Below, piece by piece: positions 1,412-15,363 of a stretch of 16,903 bases of DNA. The notes under the pieces were generated by a model. The model did no database searches, was not told where the DNA came from, and was given only the letters and a program-made list of their open reading frames with translations. Position numbers and translations under genes: made by a program. The stretch's first letter is position 1; each line of letters starts with the position of its first letter. The DNA is from Candidatus Zixiibacteriota bacterium (GTDB lineage: Bacteria; Zixibacteria; MSB-5A5; WJJR01), in NCBI GenBank assembly GCA_036170655.1, contig JAVHPP010000044.1:1-16903 (forward strand), given 5' to 3'.

Positions 1412-1978
1412 TCAGATATTCACCAGATGCAGTTGCCTCGTCCTTGGGCGATCGGTCTCCCGCAGATCAAGCCCTCCCTCCGCGACCGACTTCAAATTCG
1501 CAAGGAAGAAAGCCCAAGCTACACGGGATCCCAGATGAAGATTGTGCCGTCCGGCGGGGGTATCGGGAATATGATACTGCCGCAAGGCGATTTCGCACAG
1601 CTTTCCCTGTTTCCGCAGGAGGAGTTCAACCTCCATCGCATCGCCGAATCCGAAAGTCAGTTTTGTCGGAGGACGCGAATCGAGTATCCATGATTCCCCG
1701 ATAACACCCCCGTTGTAATACCATTCCCACCGGTATCGGTCGCTGGCCGAGCAGCGTTCCTCGTCCGGCCGTTGCGGCAACGACTCAAAGGGCGGCGCCT
1801 GCGCTATCAGGCGCCGACTGCTGGGTAGACCGTCAGACAACGCAAAGGCCGCACTGCGGAGAAACCAACGAGTCAGTCCCCGGCTTGTCGCCCACATGTC
1901 GTAGAGATCATCGGGATTGTCCTGAACGTAGATTCCCAGCCGGAATTGGGACCAATCAAACCGAGCCGCCTTGGACAA
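1412..1978 (-). CDS. SRPBCC/AHSA1 (START-like) domain protein
   Basis: P..LY..WAT..GL.RWF, G.ILD..PP.KL.F.F and C-terminal helix W.FFL.NLKSV.E are typical of AHSA1/SRPBCC. TTG start with AAGGAGG RBS at 1983-1989. Confidence 0.85.
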
Positions 1979-6496: not shown

Positions 6497-7747
6497 TCAC
6501 GGCTTGAGTGTGATATGGTCTCCGTCGCGCAGGTTCACGGGAGGATGGAGAACAACAACCGCGTCGGCATCGAGGCCGCTTCTGATCTCGACGGCCCCGC
6601 CGTATGTTTCGCCGACCGCAACCGGCGTCTCGTGTGCCTGTCCTTCCCGGATCACATACACCACCTGTTGCCCATCGCGGTCGGCAAGCGCTCCCGTGGG
6701 GACGCTGAGAACGGTCTTCGTTGTCAGTGTTGCCGAGTCCGTGTTCGCCGGGAGGAAGCTCACCTTGGCGCTCATCTCCGGCAGCACGCGGGCATCGAGA
6801 TCGTCGAACGCAATCTTGGTCATGACCGTTGCCTTGGCGCGATCGGCGGTCGGGACAATCTTCTTCACACGTCCACGATAGGGCTCGGTGGGAAAAGCGT
6901 CCAGCGTGATCAGGCAGGGCAGGCCAGCCTGAATCCGCTCAATGTTCGACTCGGACACATCGGCTTCCACTTCGAGTGAACTCATATCGGCCAGGGTCAC
7001 CACGGCGCCGCGCGAGGATACGGACGAGGCAAACGGGGCAACCACTTCGCCGACCTCGGCGTTCTTGCTGAGCACCGTCCCGTCGAAGGGCGCGCGTATG
7101 CAGGTGTTCTCCACCTGCACCTCCGCCCACTTGGCGTCCGCCTTGGCCGATTGTATGGCCGCTTCGGCAGAATTGACGCCCGCCAGCGCCGTGTGATGAC
7201 GCGCCTCCGCATTGTCGTAGTCGGCCTGGGCCACCAGCTTGTTTGCGAGCAACTCCCTTGTCCGGTCAAAGATCAACTGCGCCTCTTTGGCTGAGGCACG
7301 GGCGCGTTCAAGTTCAGCTTCCGCTTGAGCGACCCGCGCTCGCGCGGCGCCCAAGGCGGCATCCACATCATTGGCTTCCAGACGGCCGATGATGTCTCCC
7401 GCACGCACCCGGTCGCCTTCCCGGACGTTCAGGATTTCCAGCCGTCCGGTTCCTTTTGATGCCACTGCGGCTCGCCGTTGCGCCACCACATATCCCGTCG
7501 CCGTCAAAAGCGATTGCGCGCTCCCGGGACTGAGACGCTGCACAGTCGCGGTCTCCACCTCGATGGCGCGCGCGCCGCCTCTGGCCACAAAGAACACCGC
7601 CACCGCTCCCAGTAACACCAGTGGCACAACCCATTTCCAGAGCGCCACTCCGGAATGAGGCGGCACGGCCCCAGGCGCGGGACCATCGTCCCGCCGGATG
7701 CGCAGCGAGGAAAGATCGGGCTTGGTTGTGTCTTCGCTCACGTTCAT
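6497..7747 (-). CDS. Efflux periplasmic adaptor subunit (MacA/HlyD-like membrane fusion protein)
   Basis: N-terminal TM anchor, ATGYVVA, lipoyl half-motifs ([25 protein letters not shown]), alpha-hairpin, LEVEADVSE and LPEMSA. Start uncertain (ATG 7747 chosen). Confidence 0.95.
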
Positions 7748-7860
7748 CACAGTTGGGCGTCCCGCACAGCCAGTCGACAACGCAAGAATGAATATACGTC
7801 GTCAATCCATGGCTGTTTCGGGGAAAATGGGGGCCGGACTGAAGATGACACCCCTTCGAA

Positions 7861-8076
7861 CGGGCGTGTCGACAAACCCCGGCAAACGGATCGTCGACAC
7901 GGGAGCGATGAGATTGCTTCGTCACTCCTTGCGCCTGCGGCGCAGTCGTTCCTCGCAATGACATGGGTGGCATTTGGTTTCGAGGACGAAGAACGCAGTC
8001 ATTGCGAGCGAAGCGAAGCAATCTCATGGCCATGAACTACTGGAAACTACGTTCGTCCAGTTTTTCAACAAGCCCG
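7861..8076. mobile_element. Putative MITE-like element with imperfect 17 bp terminal inverted repeats
   Basis: Left end CGGGCGTGTCGACAAAC (7861-7877) matches the reverse complement of 8060-8076, CGGGCTTGTTGAAAAAC, at 14/17. It encloses an inverted REP pair and has no transposase. Confidence 0.45.
7908..8027. repeat. Inverted pair of REP/RPE-like palindromes (GTCATTGCGAG...GAAGCAATC family)
   Basis: Copy 1 at 7908-7962 is ATGAGATTGCTTC-[31 nt with inner hairpin]-CTCGCAATGAC. Copy 2 at 7998-8027 is GTCATTGCGAG-CGAAGC-GAAGCAATCTCAT. Both arms (13 and 11 nt) are exact reverse complements between the copies. Confidence 0.85.
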
Positions 8077-8198
8077 AAAGCGGGGGCCACCGGGAACGGC
8101 AAATCCGAAAAGTAGGAAGGAAAAACCATGCCAAAGAGACCTCTCCGAGCGGAGTCCGGTCATCAACTGAGCGTGCAGGGTTTATTCGCCCAACCGTC

Positions 8199-8948
8199 TT
8201 AGGTCGCAGCCTTCGGCTCGAACTTTCCGTCGACAAAATCGGCGATCTTGCGGGCTTTCTTGGGGCCGATGCCTTCCACCTGTGTCAGGTCTTTCGCCGA
8301 CGCGGTGAATACAGAGCGCAGGTTGCTGTATTTCTTCAGCATCGCTTTGGCGGTCGTGGGGCCGACCTCGGGAAGAGCGCGGAGAATGTACTCTTGGAGA
8401 TCCGCTGGATCCTTGGGCAATAAGCTGTTACCATTACCATGACCATTACCATTACCGTTGCCGTTACTGCCACCATCGGTGGGCACTAACGCCTCGGCAG
8501 AGGCAGCCGCGACAGGCACAGGCTCGCTGATCGACAGCCCCATTCCGTTCTGCGCTTGATTGGTCATAATGTAGATCAATTCAGCGACTTCGTTCGTATC
8601 GCCGACGGTCAGGACCGGCACACGATTGTGCATCGCCACAAACGCCAGAGCGCCCCGCAACGCGCCGGGCGAAGTTGTCTCAGCCTGCGCGAAAAGATCT
8701 CCCTCAATCAGAATAATGGGCTCCGCGGCTGTGTGCTTGAACTCGAGAATGCGGCGGAAGATCGATTTGTCGGCTGTCATGCGGACAAACTCGGCGGCGG
8801 TCATGTGCCAAAGTACGCACTGGTCGGTAATCATAAACTGTCCGCCCCTCAGACTGGACTCGACAATCTGAACGCCCTTCTCTCGGAGGTGACTGACCAC
8901 CGTGCTATCAGAGGAGTAACTGTCAACGATCAAAGTCAGGGTCTTCAC
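8199..8948 (-). CDS. ERCC4/XPF-family domain plus tandem helix-hairpin-helix protein; catalytic motif degenerate
   Basis: Colinear with short archaeal XPF/Hef: LIVD...L..KGV.I....L..G.F...PIILIEGD...ALRGAL, then HhH2 QEYILRALPEVGPTTAKAML...VEGIGPKKARKI. GTG start with AAAGGA RBS. Confidence 0.88.
   Translation of the reverse strand: MKTLTLIVDSYSSDSTVVSHLREKGVQIVESSLRGGQFMITDQCVLWHMTAAEFVRMTADKSIFRRILEFKHTAAEPIILIEGDLFAQAETTSPGALRGALAFVAMHNRVPVLTVGDTNEVAELIYIMTNQAQNGMGLSISEPVPVAAASAEALVPTDGGSNGNGNGNGHGNGNSLLPKDPADLQEYILRALPEVGPTTAKAMLKKYSNLRSVFTASAKDLTQVEGIGPKKARKIADFVDGKFEPKAAT
8427..8465 (-). repeat. Degenerate hexamer tandem repeat encoding an (NG)n linker
   Basis: The + strand GTTACCATTACCATGACCATTACCATTACCGTTGCCGTT encodes NGNGNGNGHGNGN on the minus strand. 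Confidence 0.8.
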
Positions 8949-9366
8949 GCACCACGATCCTTTCTACACATCCAGACGCTCTACGACCTGCAACTTGCCT
9001 GTCAGTAGACTGTAACACCAAACAACCGGCGATGTTCCGCGCCATTCAACCGCGAGGCGAGATGGACAATCGACCAAACCTCGAGTGGGACGGAATTGAC
9101 AGCCCCTGACCAACACGGGACAGACCAGGAAGCGGTCCGCAAATGATACAATCACTGCGCCAATACCAGACACATACTGTATCGGCACGCCCCTGCGGTC
9201 AATCACAATGTACAGCAAATCGGCAATTCCGCAAGCCGTTCTTGCGACAAATCTGGGACTCCGGGCTGGCGAGTTCTGCACAGCATGCCTCTCCGCCTGC
9301 GATGATCTCCCGGAATGGCGCGCGCGACCTGCGGGATCGTAACGGACACGGGGAACAAGAGAACAA

Positions 9367-10662
9367 TTATGTCTTGCGTTCCTTCTTCTGCGCGGCGGGA
9401 AAGAGCACATTGTTGAGAATCAAACGGTAACCCGGCGAATTCTTATGCAGGCTCAAATCCGTGGGCGGGTCATAGATCAGGTGCTGGTAATCCTCGGGAT
9501 CGTGCCCACCCAAAAAGGTGAAAGTCCCCTTGTCCAGATTGCCGTGGAGGTAGCGTACTTCGTTCATCCCTTCGCTCTCGCCTAAGAGCGTGACATACTT
9601 CTTCACGAGGCTCTTCCGGAATGCCGTCGTCTGGCCCATGAAACCATCGACGACGCTGACGTGGTCCTGGACAAGCATCGTCGGAACCGGATCGAGCTTG
9701 GCGGAGAAATCGAATAACGTGAAGTAATCACCCTCGGGCCCGACATGCGATGCCAACCGGTCGGGCGTAGTGTCAATGTCGGAATGCCCATACTCAAAGG
9801 GATCGAGGGACACGGTGAATCCGGTAAAGGCCATGGCTTTGTCATAGTCCAGCTGTTTCTGACAATCCGGATCGGGGGGATCGCCATCGAATGACGCCGG
9901 GACGATATCGGTGTTCAGCGCCGATAAAGCGATGTCCAGGGTTTCTGTCGCCGAGCACATAGCGAAGAGAAATCCGCCACGTGACACGTAGTCTTTGATT
10001 GCCAGAGCGACCGCCTTCTTCTCGTCTGACACTTTCTTGAACCCCAATCGGTGCGCTGTCTCCTCGCACAGTTGGACTTCCTGACGGTACCAGAGTTCGT
10101 TGCGATAGGATCCGTAGAACTTGCCGTACTGGCCGGTAAAATCCTCATGGTGCAAGTGCAGCCAGTCGAATTGATCCAAATCCCCGCGCAGGACCTCCTC
10201 GTCCCAGACCTTCTTGTATTCGATCTGGGCGTAGGCGAGCGCCATGGTCACTGCGTCATCCCAAGGTTCAGTCGTTGGGTTGGTGTAGATGGCGATGGCC
10301 GGCGCTTTTTCCAAGAGGACTGATTCCATATTCTCGTTTTCGATGGTCTGGCGAATCTCGGCCTCCTGACCGGAACCGATGATCTCGTAGGAAACGCCGC
10401 GCACGTCGCAGGTGTCTTTGATGTCAGGATAGGATTCCATCAGGAACGACCCACCCCGGTAGTTCAAAAGCCACTCCACTTTCATGCCGCGTGTCAGGCA
10501 GTGAAACGTCACCCCGTAAGCTTTGAGGTGATCAACCTGCTTCAAGTCCATGGGGATGAAAAGCTTTGCGGCGCTGACGGGGGACGCCGCCAGCGATACG
10601 GCGGCCAAAGCCGTCATGAGTATGAGCAGTGATTGACCAGCGATCTTCATCAAATGACGCAT
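9367..10662 (-). CDS. Conserved secreted protein with class I glutamine amidotransferase-like domain (family often auto-annotated 'asparagine synthetase B')
   Basis: Signal peptide; family motifs IPMD..Q.DHLKAYG, WLLNYRGGSF, PWDDAVT, DWLHLHHEDFTGQYGKFY, GGFLFAMCSAT, GGHDPEDY and NSPGYRLILNNVLFPAA; AAGGAG RBS. Confidence 0.85.
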   Translation of the reverse strand: MRHLMKIAGQSLLILMTALAAVSLAASPVSAAKLFIPMDLKQVDHLKAYGVTFHCLTRGMKVEWLLNYRGGSFLMESYPDIKDTCDVRGVSYEIIGSGQEAEIRQTIENENMESVLLEKAPAIAIYTNPTTEPWDDAVTMALAYAQIEYKKVWDEEVLRGDLDQFDWLHLHHEDFTGQYGKFYGSYRNELWYRQEVQLCEETAHRLGFKKVSDEKKAVALAIKDYVSRGGFLFAMCSATETLDIALSALNTDIVPASFDGDPPDPDCQKQLDYDKAMAFTGFTVSLDPFEYGHSDIDTTPDRLASHVGPEGDYFTLFDFSAKLDPVPTMLVQDHVSVVDGFMGQTTAFRKSLVKKYVTLLGESEGMNEVRYLHGNLDKGTFTFLGGHDPEDYQHLIYDPPTDLSLHKNSPGYRLILNNVLFPAAQKKERKT

Positions 10663-11687: not shown

Positions 11688-12578
11688 ATGGCCAAGAAAA
11701 CCGAGTTGTCCGCGCGCGTCGCGAAGGCAAGTGAGATGCTCGTTGCCTGCTCCGTGTGCCCACGTATGTGTGGCACCGCCCGTCTGGCCGGTGAAATCGG
11801 CCTGTGCCGGGCCGGGAAGAACCTCAAAGTGGCCAGTTGGACCCTCCACCAAGGAGAAGAGCCCCCGATCTCCGGAACCCGCGGCTCGGGGGCGATCTTC
11901 CTGTCCGGCTGTTCCTTGCGCTGTGTGTACTGCCAGAACTACCCCATCTCGCAGATGGCCGCCGGACAAGAAATGAGCGTCGAGGACCTCACGGCGATCA
12001 TGCTCAAGTTGCAGGCGTCTGGCGCCCACAATATCAACTTTGTCACCCCAACGCATTACGCGCCGCAAATCCTTGACGCCATCTTGCGCGCTCGGTCACG
12101 AGGACTGGCCATACCAATTGTGTGGAACACATCGGGGTACGAGCGTGTGGAAACACTGCGTCTGCTCGCCGGAATCGTGGACATCTATCTGGCCGATATG
12201 CGATATGGAGACGACGCGGCGGGCAGGAAATACTCAAAGGTGCCCGACTATGCATCAATCAACCGGGCGGCGATTCAAGAAATGCACCGTCAAGTTGGAA
12301 TTCTCACGCTGGACAGTCACGGGCTCGCCGAACGGGGGCTCTTGGTTCGCCATCTCGTGCTTCCGGGTGGAATCGCCGAATCGAGGACAGTGCTGGAATT
12401 TCTTGCGCAGGCAATTTCACCCCAGACAGCGGTCAGTGTGATGGGTCAGTACTTCCCTGCACACAAAGCAATGAACGATCCCCTGCTGAGACGGCAGATC
12501 ACGGCGGAGGAATACGACGACGTACTGGCCGCCTTTGAGGCGGCAGGACTCGAACATGGGTTCTGTCAGGAACTCTAA
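11688..12578 (+). CDS. Radical SAM protein, PflX family (PFL-activating-enzyme-related, function unknown)
   Basis: N-terminal CSVCPRMC...C, HQGEEPPISGTRGSGAIF, CxxxCxxC (CSLRCVYC), GAHNINFVTPTH, VWNTSGYE, LLVRHLVLPG and VMGQYFP. Start could be ATG 11586 or 11688. Confidence 0.92.
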   Translation: MAKKTELSARVAKASEMLVACSVCPRMCGTARLAGEIGLCRAGKNLKVASWTLHQGEEPPISGTRGSGAIFLSGCSLRCVYCQNYPISQMAAGQEMSVEDLTAIMLKLQASGAHNINFVTPTHYAPQILDAILRARSRGLAIPIVWNTSGYERVETLRLLAGIVDIYLADMRYGDDAAGRKYSKVPDYASINRAAIQEMHRQVGILTLDSHGLAERGLLVRHLVLPGGIAESRTVLEFLAQAISPQTAVSVMGQYFPAHKAMNDPLLRRQITAEEYDDVLAAFEAAGLEHGFCQEL

Positions 12579-12579
12579 G

Positions 12580-15363
12580 ATGCCCACTTGCCATCACCGT
12601 GCCACCGGACGGCGCACCCGGCGCCGTTTCGCTTGGTCTCGCTTCGGACCGCGGCTGGCCACGGTGTGGTTCGTTGCCGCGCTGTTGCCGTTCGCTGCGG
12701 GTGGATGCGTGTACTTTAATACCTTCTATCATGCCAAGAAGTTCTTCAACGAAGGCGAAAAGACACGCAAGAGCACCGGTGACCGGACAGCCGGGATCAG
12801 CGCCGGCAAGAACTCCTATGAGAAGGCGATTGAGAAAGCCAGCAAGATCGTCCAGAAGCATCCCAAGAGCAAGTACCACGACGACGCGCTCTTTCTCATC
12901 GGAACGTCATACTTCTACATCAACAACTACACCAAGTCAGAGGCCGCCTTCCGGGAATTGCTGGCGACCCACCCCAAGTCCAATCTCGTCGAAGAATCGC
13001 GCTTGTATCTGGCGCGTTGCCGTGTGGAGCTGGGAGACGATCCCGCCGCGTTTCGCGCCTTCACTGAGCTGGCCGAAACCGCCCACAAGCCGGCCTGGCG
13101 TGCCGAGGCCATCTTCCAGCGTGGCGGATACTTCCTGAAGAATACATTCTACGATTCGGCGGCCATCGAGTACGATCGCATCTTGAACGAATACAAGGAC
13201 AGTGAACGAACGCTGGATGCACGGTTGCGCGCGGCAGAGACACGCCGTCACCTCGGGCAGTACGATTCCGCCATCGCCCTATATGCCCCGCTGATTGACG
13301 ATAATATCGTGCTGACGCGCTTTCAGGCCCGCGCGGGAACAGGCGAAGCACTCTATGAATCTGACCGGCCGGACTCGGGCAATACCATCTTCCGCGCGAT
13401 GGCCGATGACGAAAAGTACGCCGATTCCATCGGGACAATTCGTCTGCTGCTTGCCCGCGGATTAAAGGCGATCGGGGACGACAAGGGCGCCTGGCGTCAG
13501 TATGAACAGATCACGGCGCTTCTGGAAAAAACCCTCTGGTCGTCGGAAGCTTATTTCCGCATGGCCGAGATCAGGCAGTACCGTGACAAGGATCTGGTCG
13601 ATGCCCGTGATCTCTATGAGAAATGCCGGCTCGAGAGTCCCAACGGACCCTTATCACAACAAGCGCTGACTCGCTCGGCCAACATCACCAAGCTGGAGCA
13701 GTTCCGCAAGGAGTTGGGCCGGGGCGAACTCAGAGGTCTCACCGAGGAGTTCGCCGAGACGAAGCCGTACGATCCTGCGCAACTCCCGCGTCTCGAGCGA
13801 ACGGCGAGGCATTCACCGCGCGAGGCACGGCCACCCGATTATCACCTCGCGTCCGCTGCAGACTCGACCGCGACAGTGTACGGCCCGGAAGCTCCGATGG
13901 ATTCCTCTCTGCAGTTGGCGGAGCCGGCAATCCCGCCGGATTCCAGCGCATTGGTACAAGGCCCCCCGGCTCCGGCCCAAACGCCGGATTCGTCGCGCGC
14001 ACAGAACAATTCTCCGACAACAGCCGAGGCCGAACCATTCGGACCACCCATCTCGCTGGCGACCTACTATGGTCCCCCGGTGAGCCAAGCCGACATCGCG
14101 TACAACGAACGCATCGGCATCCTGCTTTCTGATTCCGACTGGCAGTTGCTGATTGGGGGGAAAGGGGCTTTGGGTCCGCCCTCGCCGGCTTATCTGCATG
14201 AATTTGGGACGGGCAATCTCCTCGGTCCGCCCGCTCCACCCGATTCGGTTCTCAACCGCGTCGTGCTGACTGCCCAAGTCGACAGCGCCACGTTACAAAT
14301 GAAAGCCGCGCGTGACTCAGCCCGCGTCACCCGACAGGCGGAATTGGACAAGATCAAATCGTCTGCCAACGCCCAATTGCAACTCGCTGAGTTGTATCGC
14401 TTCGACCTGGGGTACCCCGATTCGGCGCTGGGGGAGTACGAGAACATGGTGGAACGCTACCCCAAAACACTCTTCGCTGCCAAGGCCCTTTTGGGAGCGG
14501 CCGATGTGTTGATGGATGCTTTGGCGGATACGGTCCAAGCCGTGGCCCATCTCGAACGCATTCTCAGTGAGTATCCCTATTCCGACTACGCCGGTGATGC
14601 GATTGCCCGGCTTCACCGGGAGGGGTCACCGGCCGACACCGCCCATCCACTGCTGGCCTATCGTAAGGCCGAAGAAGCAATGCTCGGAAAACATAATCCG
14701 AAACGAGCCATTGACCAGTTGGAAGAGTTCCTCAACCGTTATCCCGATTCGCGGCTGGTTCCCAACGCGGAGTTTGCCATCGCGTCTCTGCGCGAAACAT
14801 ACTTTCCGACAGAAGATTCGACTGTTCTTTTGGCCTACAAGGAGATCCAGACAAAGTACCCGAGCACTGCGTTCGCCGATGCGGCCGCCCAGAAGCTGAC
14901 ATTCACGGTCAAGCGCCCGCAGAAACGTGTCGTCCCGAAGATCCAAGACACGACGACGACCGTCGGCGCCAACCCCGCGGTGGCAACCACGGCCGACACG
15001 CTGGAAAAAAAACTCGCGCACATGCCCAAGGCGCCACGTCCCAAGTTCCAGGGACCATTTGTGTATCCAGAATCCGAAATCGGGAGAAACTGGAAGGGGA
15101 TTGTCGCCTTCAAGATCCTGATTGGACTCGATGGCCAGATCGTCGAAAAACAACTGGTGCGTCCGTCACCATCACCTGAGATTGACGAAGCGGCACGGAT
15201 CGCGGTGTTGCAAACATACTTCTTTGCCGATTCGCTGGCATTGGACACACTGAACCGTTTCCGCACTGACTGGTGGTACCTGTATGAGATCCAGGTAACC
15301 CCTCCCGCCACCGAGCAGGATCAACTCCAGCAACTCTTTCCCAACCAGCAGAATAACCCGTGA
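12580..15363 (+). CDS. Large TPR lipoprotein (SprE/PorW-like N-terminus) with C-terminal TonB-C-like domain
   Basis: Lipobox AAGG-C followed by VYFNTFYHAKK; KAIEKASKIVQKHPKSKYHDDALFLIG; many TPR/YfiO-like repeats (..YP.S); C-terminal FVYPESE...KGIVAFKILIGLDGQI......PS.SPEIDEAARIAV. ATG at 12580 lies just after the radical SAM stop. Confidence 0.85.
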   Translation: MPTCHHRATGRRTRRRFAWSRFGPRLATVWFVAALLPFAAGGCVYFNTFYHAKKFFNEGEKTRKSTGDRTAGISAGKNSYEKAIEKASKIVQKHPKSKYHDDALFLIGTSYFYINNYTKSEAAFRELLATHPKSNLVEESRLYLARCRVELGDDPAAFRAFTELAETAHKPAWRAEAIFQRGGYFLKNTFYDSAAIEYDRILNEYKDSERTLDARLRAAETRRHLGQYDSAIALYAPLIDDNIVLTRFQARAGTGEALYESDRPDSGNTIFRAMADDEKYADSIGTIRLLLARGLKAIGDDKGAWRQYEQITALLEKTLWSSEAYFRMAEIRQYRDKDLVDARDLYEKCRLESPNGPLSQQALTRSANITKLEQFRKELGRGELRGLTEEFAETKPYDPAQLPRLERTARHSPREARPPDYHLASAADSTATVYGPEAPMDSSLQLAEPAIPPDSSALVQGPPAPAQTPDSSRAQNNSPTTAEAEPFGPPISLATYYGPPVSQADIAYNERIGILLSDSDWQLLIGGKGALGPPSPAYLHEFGTGNLLGPPAPPDSVLNRVVLTAQVDSATLQMKAARDSARVTRQAELDKIKSSANAQLQLAELYRFDLGYPDSALGEYENMVERYPKTLFAAKALLGAADVLMDALADTVQAVAHLERILSEYPYSDYAGDAIARLHREGSPADTAHPLLAYRKAEEAMLGKHNPKRAIDQLEEFLNRYPDSRLVPNAEFAIASLRETYFPTEDSTVLLAYKEIQTKYPSTAFADAAAQKLTFTVKRPQKRVVPKIQDTTTTVGANPAVATTADTLEKKLAHMPKAPRPKFQGPFVYPESEIGRNWKGIVAFKILIGLDGQIVEKQLVRPSPSPEIDEAARIAVLQTYFFADSLALDTLNRFRTDWWYLYEIQVTPPATEQDQLQQLFPNQQNNP

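Follow-up and report, generated by a model that had tools for sequence, protein, structure and literature searches.

We report that a 249-aa protein encoded in a Candidatus Zixiibacteriota contig is, on the evidence of its sequence and predicted fold, a bacterial XPF-family pseudonuclease by fold, and not an active XPF, a Hef protein or an ERCC1-type partner. The gene lies within the 16,903 nucleotides that were analysed (hereafter, the window). On balance, and by analogy with known complexes, the protein is probably a non-cutting homodimeric binder of branched DNA, convergent with FANCM-FAAP24 and Zip2-Spo16. Slightly less firmly, we lean toward the view that an all-dead homodimer has existed without gene duplication since early Zixibacteria, with the active site swapped for a new conserved binding surface. 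The same reading would make the gene a bacterial re-run of the FANCM/Zip2 path, with decay graded from a near-intact family (f7) to fully dead ones (f1 and f13). Statements credited to published papers below refer to excerpts of those papers.

The catalytically degenerate XPF/ERCC4-(HhH)2 gene occupies positions 8199..8948 on the minus strand and begins with GTG. Its reading frame is intact, and a Shine-Dalgarno-like AAAGGA (8958..8963, minus strand) lies 9 nt 5' of the start codon; a reading of the sequence alone had noted both features correctly. The ERCC4 pseudonuclease domain spans residues 4-135 (8544..8939, minus strand) and matches PF02732 over residues 11-128 (E 4e-12, 46.7 bits versus a cut-off of 24). 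It is followed by a variable low-complexity linker with GN repeats (residues 136-177; 8418..8543, minus strand), which is modeled with low confidence. The (HhH)2 domain (residues 178-245; 8214..8417, minus strand) is the predicted homodimer interface and a probable DNA-binding module; families PF00633, PF12826 and PF14520 match it above their cut-offs within residues 189-239. The profile search that the sequence-only reading had proposed places both domains over the Pfam cut-offs, and Pfam and fold together confirm the short archaeal XPF/Hef layout of ERCC4 plus HhH2. Scores fall below the NCBIfam cut-offs for NF040956 (68.7 versus 300 bits) and NF010337 (129 versus 610). The closest PDB sequences are those of A. 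pernix XPF and P. furiosus Hef. One close database homologue is identical in sequence to the protein of genome G005, which belongs to the same family (f1).

An AF2 model built from an alignment of 121 rows has a pLDDT of 90.3. The nuclease-domain model superimposes on P. furiosus Hef 1J24 with Z 22.8 and rmsd 1.1 A over 133 aligned residues, so that the proposed overlay does return an ERCC4 fold for the N-terminal domain, and the HhH2 model superimposes on Hef 1X2I with Z 13.1 and rmsd 0.9 A over 68 residues. Foldseek agrees with both assignments. When two copies were modeled together, the score was 0.56, compared with 0.00 for the best of 3 controls; of the solved structures used to set the mark for such scores, 20 of 30 homodimers reach it, as does 1 of 23 monomers. 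At least 36% of contacts agreed between runs, and the partner pLDDT was at least 71. Confident contacts are confined to residues 177-246 (HhH2 against HhH2), with nuclease-domain contacts not among them, and the interface includes the clade-conserved residues L210, F214 and F238. The protein is thus predicted to form a homodimer through HhH2, a pass that may reflect the solved relatives 2BGW and 1X2I; since dimers of that type are already solved, the pass speaks to likeness, not binding.

The nuclease domain aligns to A. pernix XPF without gaps, and this alignment bears out the substitutions listed from sequence alone: VDVRE becomes VDSYS, GDY becomes GQF (Q37), ERK becomes WHM (47-49), the following D becomes E53, and DGRLFEQ becomes DKSIFRR, which places R66 at the Q66 position. 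IEG is intact, as is each of the two HhH motifs, in line with the earlier reading. GDxnERKx3D is the Mg-binding and cleavage motif (PMC6411835); its degenerate counterpart here covers residues 36-53 (8790..8843, minus strand) and reads G-Q37, W47-H48-M49 and E53, so that the metal-binding core (D37, E47) and K49 are absent. The further statement that no catalytic residue survives holds for this motif core, and fails for D9 and E82, which are retained; E53 is a conservative change. D9 (8922..8924, minus strand) is the sole core catalytic acid left in this copy. In the structural register, model residues 4..141 correspond to FANCM 1818..1960, and D9 to FANCM G1823 and to the position of XPF D676, a residue cited as essential (PMC3763369). 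Among 48 clade genomes, only 15 have D9.

The degenerate site is a property of a whole clade. None of 40 close database homologues has ERK, contrary to the possibility that close orthologues retain it. Two fragments and four proteins with ERCC4 only were excluded at an earlier stage. Of 244 extracted sequences, 208 then entered the tree, the omitted ones being 35 close homologues and a single mis-extracted row. All Zixibacteria two-domain proteins except that of G082, whose motif is intact, form one clade of 68 (SH 0.998). We scored D9, D37, E47, K49 and D53 as core residues in 67 members, among which are some duplicate rows, after dropping one fragment. None of the five is kept in 11 members, one in 33, two in 16, three in 7, and four or five in no member, compared with all five in 134 of 136 scorable outgroup proteins. 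No complete GDxnERKx3D motif occurs in the 249-aa protein or in any of the 67, yet every canonical residue survives in some clade member.

Families differ in what they keep. In f1, the family of the 249-aa protein, 11 of 15 genomes have D9 and 2 have D37, and not one of the 15 has E47 or K49. All 14 f5 genomes have D37 and R48. All four f7 genomes keep E12, D37, ERK and Q66 and have lost D9 and D53; these members (L002, L003, L029 and L030) look like a FANCM-like intermediate. The second HhH motif is well kept across the clade (G228 in 45 and K230 in 46 of 48 genomes), with the exception of three f6 sequences in which it has decayed (G228 in 0 of 2 f6 genomes). In two f6 loci, L006 and L007, the protein is extended at its N-terminus by a basic segment that begins at the upstream gene's stop codon. 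Disrupted copies comprise L013 (genome G016), with an in-frame TAA, and a split match at G042:C5:1030-1633, where the neighboring gene is split too, possibly through an assembly error; the other aligned clade members have intact reading frames. Among outgroup Hef/XPF proteins, E-F/L/Y/T-K replaces ERK in P0072, P0082, P0110, P0143, P0146, P0151, P0153, P0162, P0170, P0177, P0106 and P0198, and two of these 12 also lack E82.

Selection has acted on the degenerate genes. For 8 within-family pairs, five of which are near saturation, dN/dS is 0.06-0.18 over the whole gene and 0.02-0.16 over the nuclease domain. With 0 of 67 sites complete, these values support the expectation that orthologues share the dead site under purifying selection. 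Certain residues have also been gained, as judged by their frequency in clade and outgroup, respectively: R65 (48/48 versus 18/140), E/D69 (47/48 versus 44/140), R/K72 (46/48 versus 35/139), F/Y103 (48/48 versus 13/139), N108 (42/48 versus 2/140), R/H109 (48/48 versus 28/140), Q131 (48/48 versus 18/140) and L210 (48/48 versus 26/140). These counts are inflated by shared descent, yet they are stable across seven families with 24-50% identity to the 249-aa protein. Residues 61-72 (8733..8768, minus strand) lie on a helix of about 61-73 and include the clade-conserved K/R61, R65, E/D69, K71 and R/K72; position 72 is H in the 249-aa protein. Helix periodicity in the model would place positions 61, 65, 69 and 72 on one exposed face, beside position 66. 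The conserved pair N108-R109 (8622..8627, minus strand) stands at the end of helix 94-107, and Q131 (8556..8558, minus strand) on helix 118-135. The nuclease domain of the 249-aa protein is net acidic (-5).

The sequence-only reading had proposed an ERCC1-like dead subunit of an active heterodimeric nuclease, and the search for a partner argues against this. A second PF02732 match was not found in the host genome (100% complete), and HMMs of the clade and of the outgroup, run unfiltered against 38,866 six-frame ORFs of that genome, recovered only the 249-aa gene (next best E 0.44). Across the phylum, 60 of 239 genomes have PF02732 matches, and in 59 of these there is exactly one; the second hit, in G194, is fragmentary and carries a stop. 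The clade profile is strong in 56 genomes, or 55 if G082 is excluded. The dead-clade gene was not found in 184 of the 239 genomes, so any role it has is dispensable. Intact ERCC4 genes occur in G082, G123, G142, G143 and G163, and all five genomes are without the dead-clade gene. Four of them (G163, G143, G123 and G142; loci L031-L034) carry short ERCC4-only genes without HhH and with intact GDY-ERK, which apparently precede another gene in a mobile-element-like setting.

Two other kinds of partner were considered and rejected. An HMM built from 39 Hef helicase regions detected no Hef-type helicase in the host genome, its best match (79.5 bits) comprising only motif blocks of other SF2 helicases; a split Hef with the helicase in trans was rejected for this reason. 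MrfA/Hrq was rejected because, among 76 genomes hand-picked from the 239, it is present in 32 of 37 positive and 34 of 39 negative genomes. In f7, which is one lineage only, the MrfA/Hrq match is absent from three of four genomes and weak in the fourth.

Upstream of the XPF gene lies a gene for a 431-aa protein (9367..10662, minus strand) that serves as a conserved-locus marker. The protein has no Pfam or NCBIfam match, a signal-peptide-like N-terminus and a weak lead to BPL_N/GATase folds; atlas clusters containing it (Bacteroidota) are automatically named 'asparagine synthetase B'. It is encoded in 227 of 239 phylum genomes, with 61-84% identity among the matches listed in other genomes. Being near-universal and without a family match, the gene marks position more than function. 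The XPF gene lies directly 3' of it in 47 of 50 clade loci, at gaps of 114-494 bp; the exceptions are G004 and G008, which have other neighbors, and G003, at a contig edge. At 20 XPF-negative loci, the 431-aa gene has other neighbors in 19 of 19 informative cases, and one is at a contig edge. We therefore regard a functional link as weak, given the near-universal distribution, the gap, and the other neighbors where XPF is missing, and the 431-aa gene is probably not a functional partner. A repair gene was not seen among the conserved neighbors of clade loci.

In a FastTree phylogeny of the 431-aa gene, XPF-positive families interleave with negative ones, in groupings that resemble the XPF tree. 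Negative loci of f13 and f16 have the same downstream genes, with the XPF gene missing. The interleaved neighbor tree and these gaps suggest early presence in Zixibacteria, vertical descent and repeated loss. A phage origin of the clade was considered and rejected, as single-sequence queries of IMG/VR and INPHARED returned no relative. Viral proteins do, however, occur in atlas clusters of the ERCC4+HhH type.

The nearest active relatives of the clade are standalone XPFs of Chloroflexota and of unclassified bacterial MAGs. The clade and these relatives fall inside a short-XPF group (support 0.98) that includes Bathyarchaeia, and candidate sister groups of the clade have support of 0.12-0.86. 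The dead clade thus nests among prokaryotic standalone XPFs in a tree built without eukaryotic sequences, which agrees with the earlier proposal that catalytic residues were lost independently of eukaryotes. Intact bacterial XPFs of Anaerolineae/Chloroflexota and bacterial MAGs (L116-L119, L155, L157, L166 and L170) share the two-domain layout; unlike in the dead clade, each of the nine scored motif residues is present and the 431-aa gene is not adjacent. A. pernix XPF (2BGW/2BHN) and the C-terminal part of Hef (1J22-1J25, 1X2I) resemble the 249-aa protein in ERCC4+(HhH)2 spacing, in being encoded by a single gene and in its predicted homodimer. The 249-aa protein differs from them in being bacterial, in having lost the motif, and in having no Hef helicase in its gene or genome.

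Among complexes that lack an active subunit, FANCM-FAAP24 is similar in that FANCM has no D9-equivalent and has E at the 53-equivalent position. Family f7 keeps the metal-ligand pair D37 and E47, as FANCM does; the 249-aa protein, unlike FANCM, is also without metal ligands. FANCM-FAAP24 is a translocase-tied heterodimer of two eukaryotic paralogues, whereas here there is one gene, and no translocase was found. Zip2:Spo16 (SHOC1:SPO16) likewise has no active site and has basic residues near the former one; it is a meiotic heterodimer that arose by gene duplication, and shows 13-14% identity in structural alignment. ERCC1 and EME1 share the dead ERCC4 fold with HhH2, but they serve active XPF and MUS81, and no such partner was found for the 249-aa protein. 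With one dead gene per genome, the dimer predicted here would, judged from sequence, also contain no catalytic subunit, and FANCM-FAAP24 and Zip2-Spo16 are better analogues than ERCC1.

Given that HhH2 is kept, catalysis is lost, no partner was found, and FANCM and Zip2 provide precedents, we favor a junction binder over the other explanations. FANCM:FAAP24 (PMC3763369) and Zip2:Spo16 (PMC6411835) bind DNA junctions without cutting them, and both scaffold partners. By analogy, the homodimer would hold bent or branched DNA, such as flaps, forks or recombination joints, and would not cut it. In archaeal XPF, two HhH2 modules grip two duplex arms while one active site cuts (PMC2034474), and the two modules here may grip two arms in the same manner. 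A basic/polar stripe of K/R61, R65, E/D69 and R72, with N108, R109 and Q131, could contact either one arm of the DNA or a protein partner. Such a protein might have an accessory role in repair or recombination, protecting junctions or serving as a scaffold, and RuvC and UvrC, which the host genome encodes, would do the cutting. Points that weigh against this reading are the decayed second HhH motif of f6, the net acidic nuclease domain of the 249-aa protein, the lack of repair genes among conserved neighbors, the failure of MrfA/Hrq to track the gene, the missing Hef-type helicase, and the many phylum genomes in which the gene was not found. Distinctly less probable, though the most serious competitor, is a repurposed adaptor or regulator whose gained surface binds a protein or small ligand, with DNA binding generic (nucleoid-like) or secondary. 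The gained residues are indeed kept more strictly than any former catalytic residue, ERCC1 binds XPA through its former active-site groove (PMC2034474), and f6 lost HhH2 features but keeps R65, N108 and Q131. However, HhH motifs persist in 45-46 of the 48 genomes, and groove residues 47-49 are variable, unlike the conserved ERCC1 groove. That the fixed neighbor is not a repair gene would also suit an adaptor, but most copies of this near-universal gene occur without an XPF gene, and the two genes are apart in G004 and G008.

The remaining explanations range from improbable to very improbable. A nuclease that still cuts, in f7 if nowhere else, through an active site that has moved or is weak falls at the upper end of this range: active-site migration is known in PD-(D/E)xK enzymes (PMC3424549), E/D69, K71 and E82 are conserved, and f7 retains much of the motif. 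Against it stand the near-complete loss of D37, E47 and K49 in f1 and the placement of E69 and K71 on different faces of one helix, as inferred from DSSP; f7 itself lacks D9 and D53, and FANCM, also without the D9-equivalent, is non-cutting (PMC3763369). An inactive ERCC1-like subunit beside an active ERCC4 nuclease would follow the eukaryotic pattern (PMC2034474), and five Zixibacteria genomes do carry intact ERCC4 genes. The dead-clade gene is missing from all five, however, three profiles recover a single ERCC4 domain in the host genome, and single matches are the rule across the phylum, so this explanation is largely refuted and very unlikely. Least probable is a decaying relic without function. 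Repeated losses in the phylum, the in-frame stop in G016 and the split match in G042 are what such decay would produce, but dN/dS well under 1, invariant gained residues and otherwise intact frames refute it.

A survey from 2012 listed ERCC4/XPF/Mus81 as 'Archaea & Eukaryota, no HGT observed' (PMC3424549); the intact standalone XPFs of Anaerolineae/Chloroflexota and bacterial MAGs stand apart from that listing. Dead members of the family have been attributed, in eukaryotes, to duplication with subfunctionalisation (PMC2034474). The literature searched, which left subscription papers mostly outside and included excerpts of PMC11377751 and PMC11212195, yielded no account of a dead XPF in bacteria or in Zixibacteria; in the only paper found on Zixibacteria and XPF, as excerpted, xpf denotes a phosphoketolase. 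A single-copy dead bacterial XPF would mean that a non-cutting function is selectable with neither duplication nor an active partner. It would also offer a one-gene model of about 230-250 aa for XPF scaffold roles beyond cutting, and the clade a natural series of active-site states from which to learn what residues decide whether a junction nuclease becomes a binder of junctions.

Searches for regulatory elements gave no Rfam leader matches at E<=0.1 in 18 loci and no sigma-70 promoter in positions 7700-9500 of the window. In f5 (L020, L024, L090, L092 and others), sigma-70-like boxes lie some 240 bp before the XPF start; the leader behind them is seemingly conserved within f5, contains possible hairpins and has no Rfam match. 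Elsewhere in the window, positions 1412-1978 (minus strand) encode a protein of 188 aa that weakly matches AHSA1/SRPBCC (E 0.002); its TTG start codon and the ATG of the adjacent FKBP-type isomerase gene overlap. Positions 12535-15363 (plus strand) encode a 942-aa TPR/YfiO-like lipoprotein with a proline-rich middle and a TonB_C-like C-terminus.
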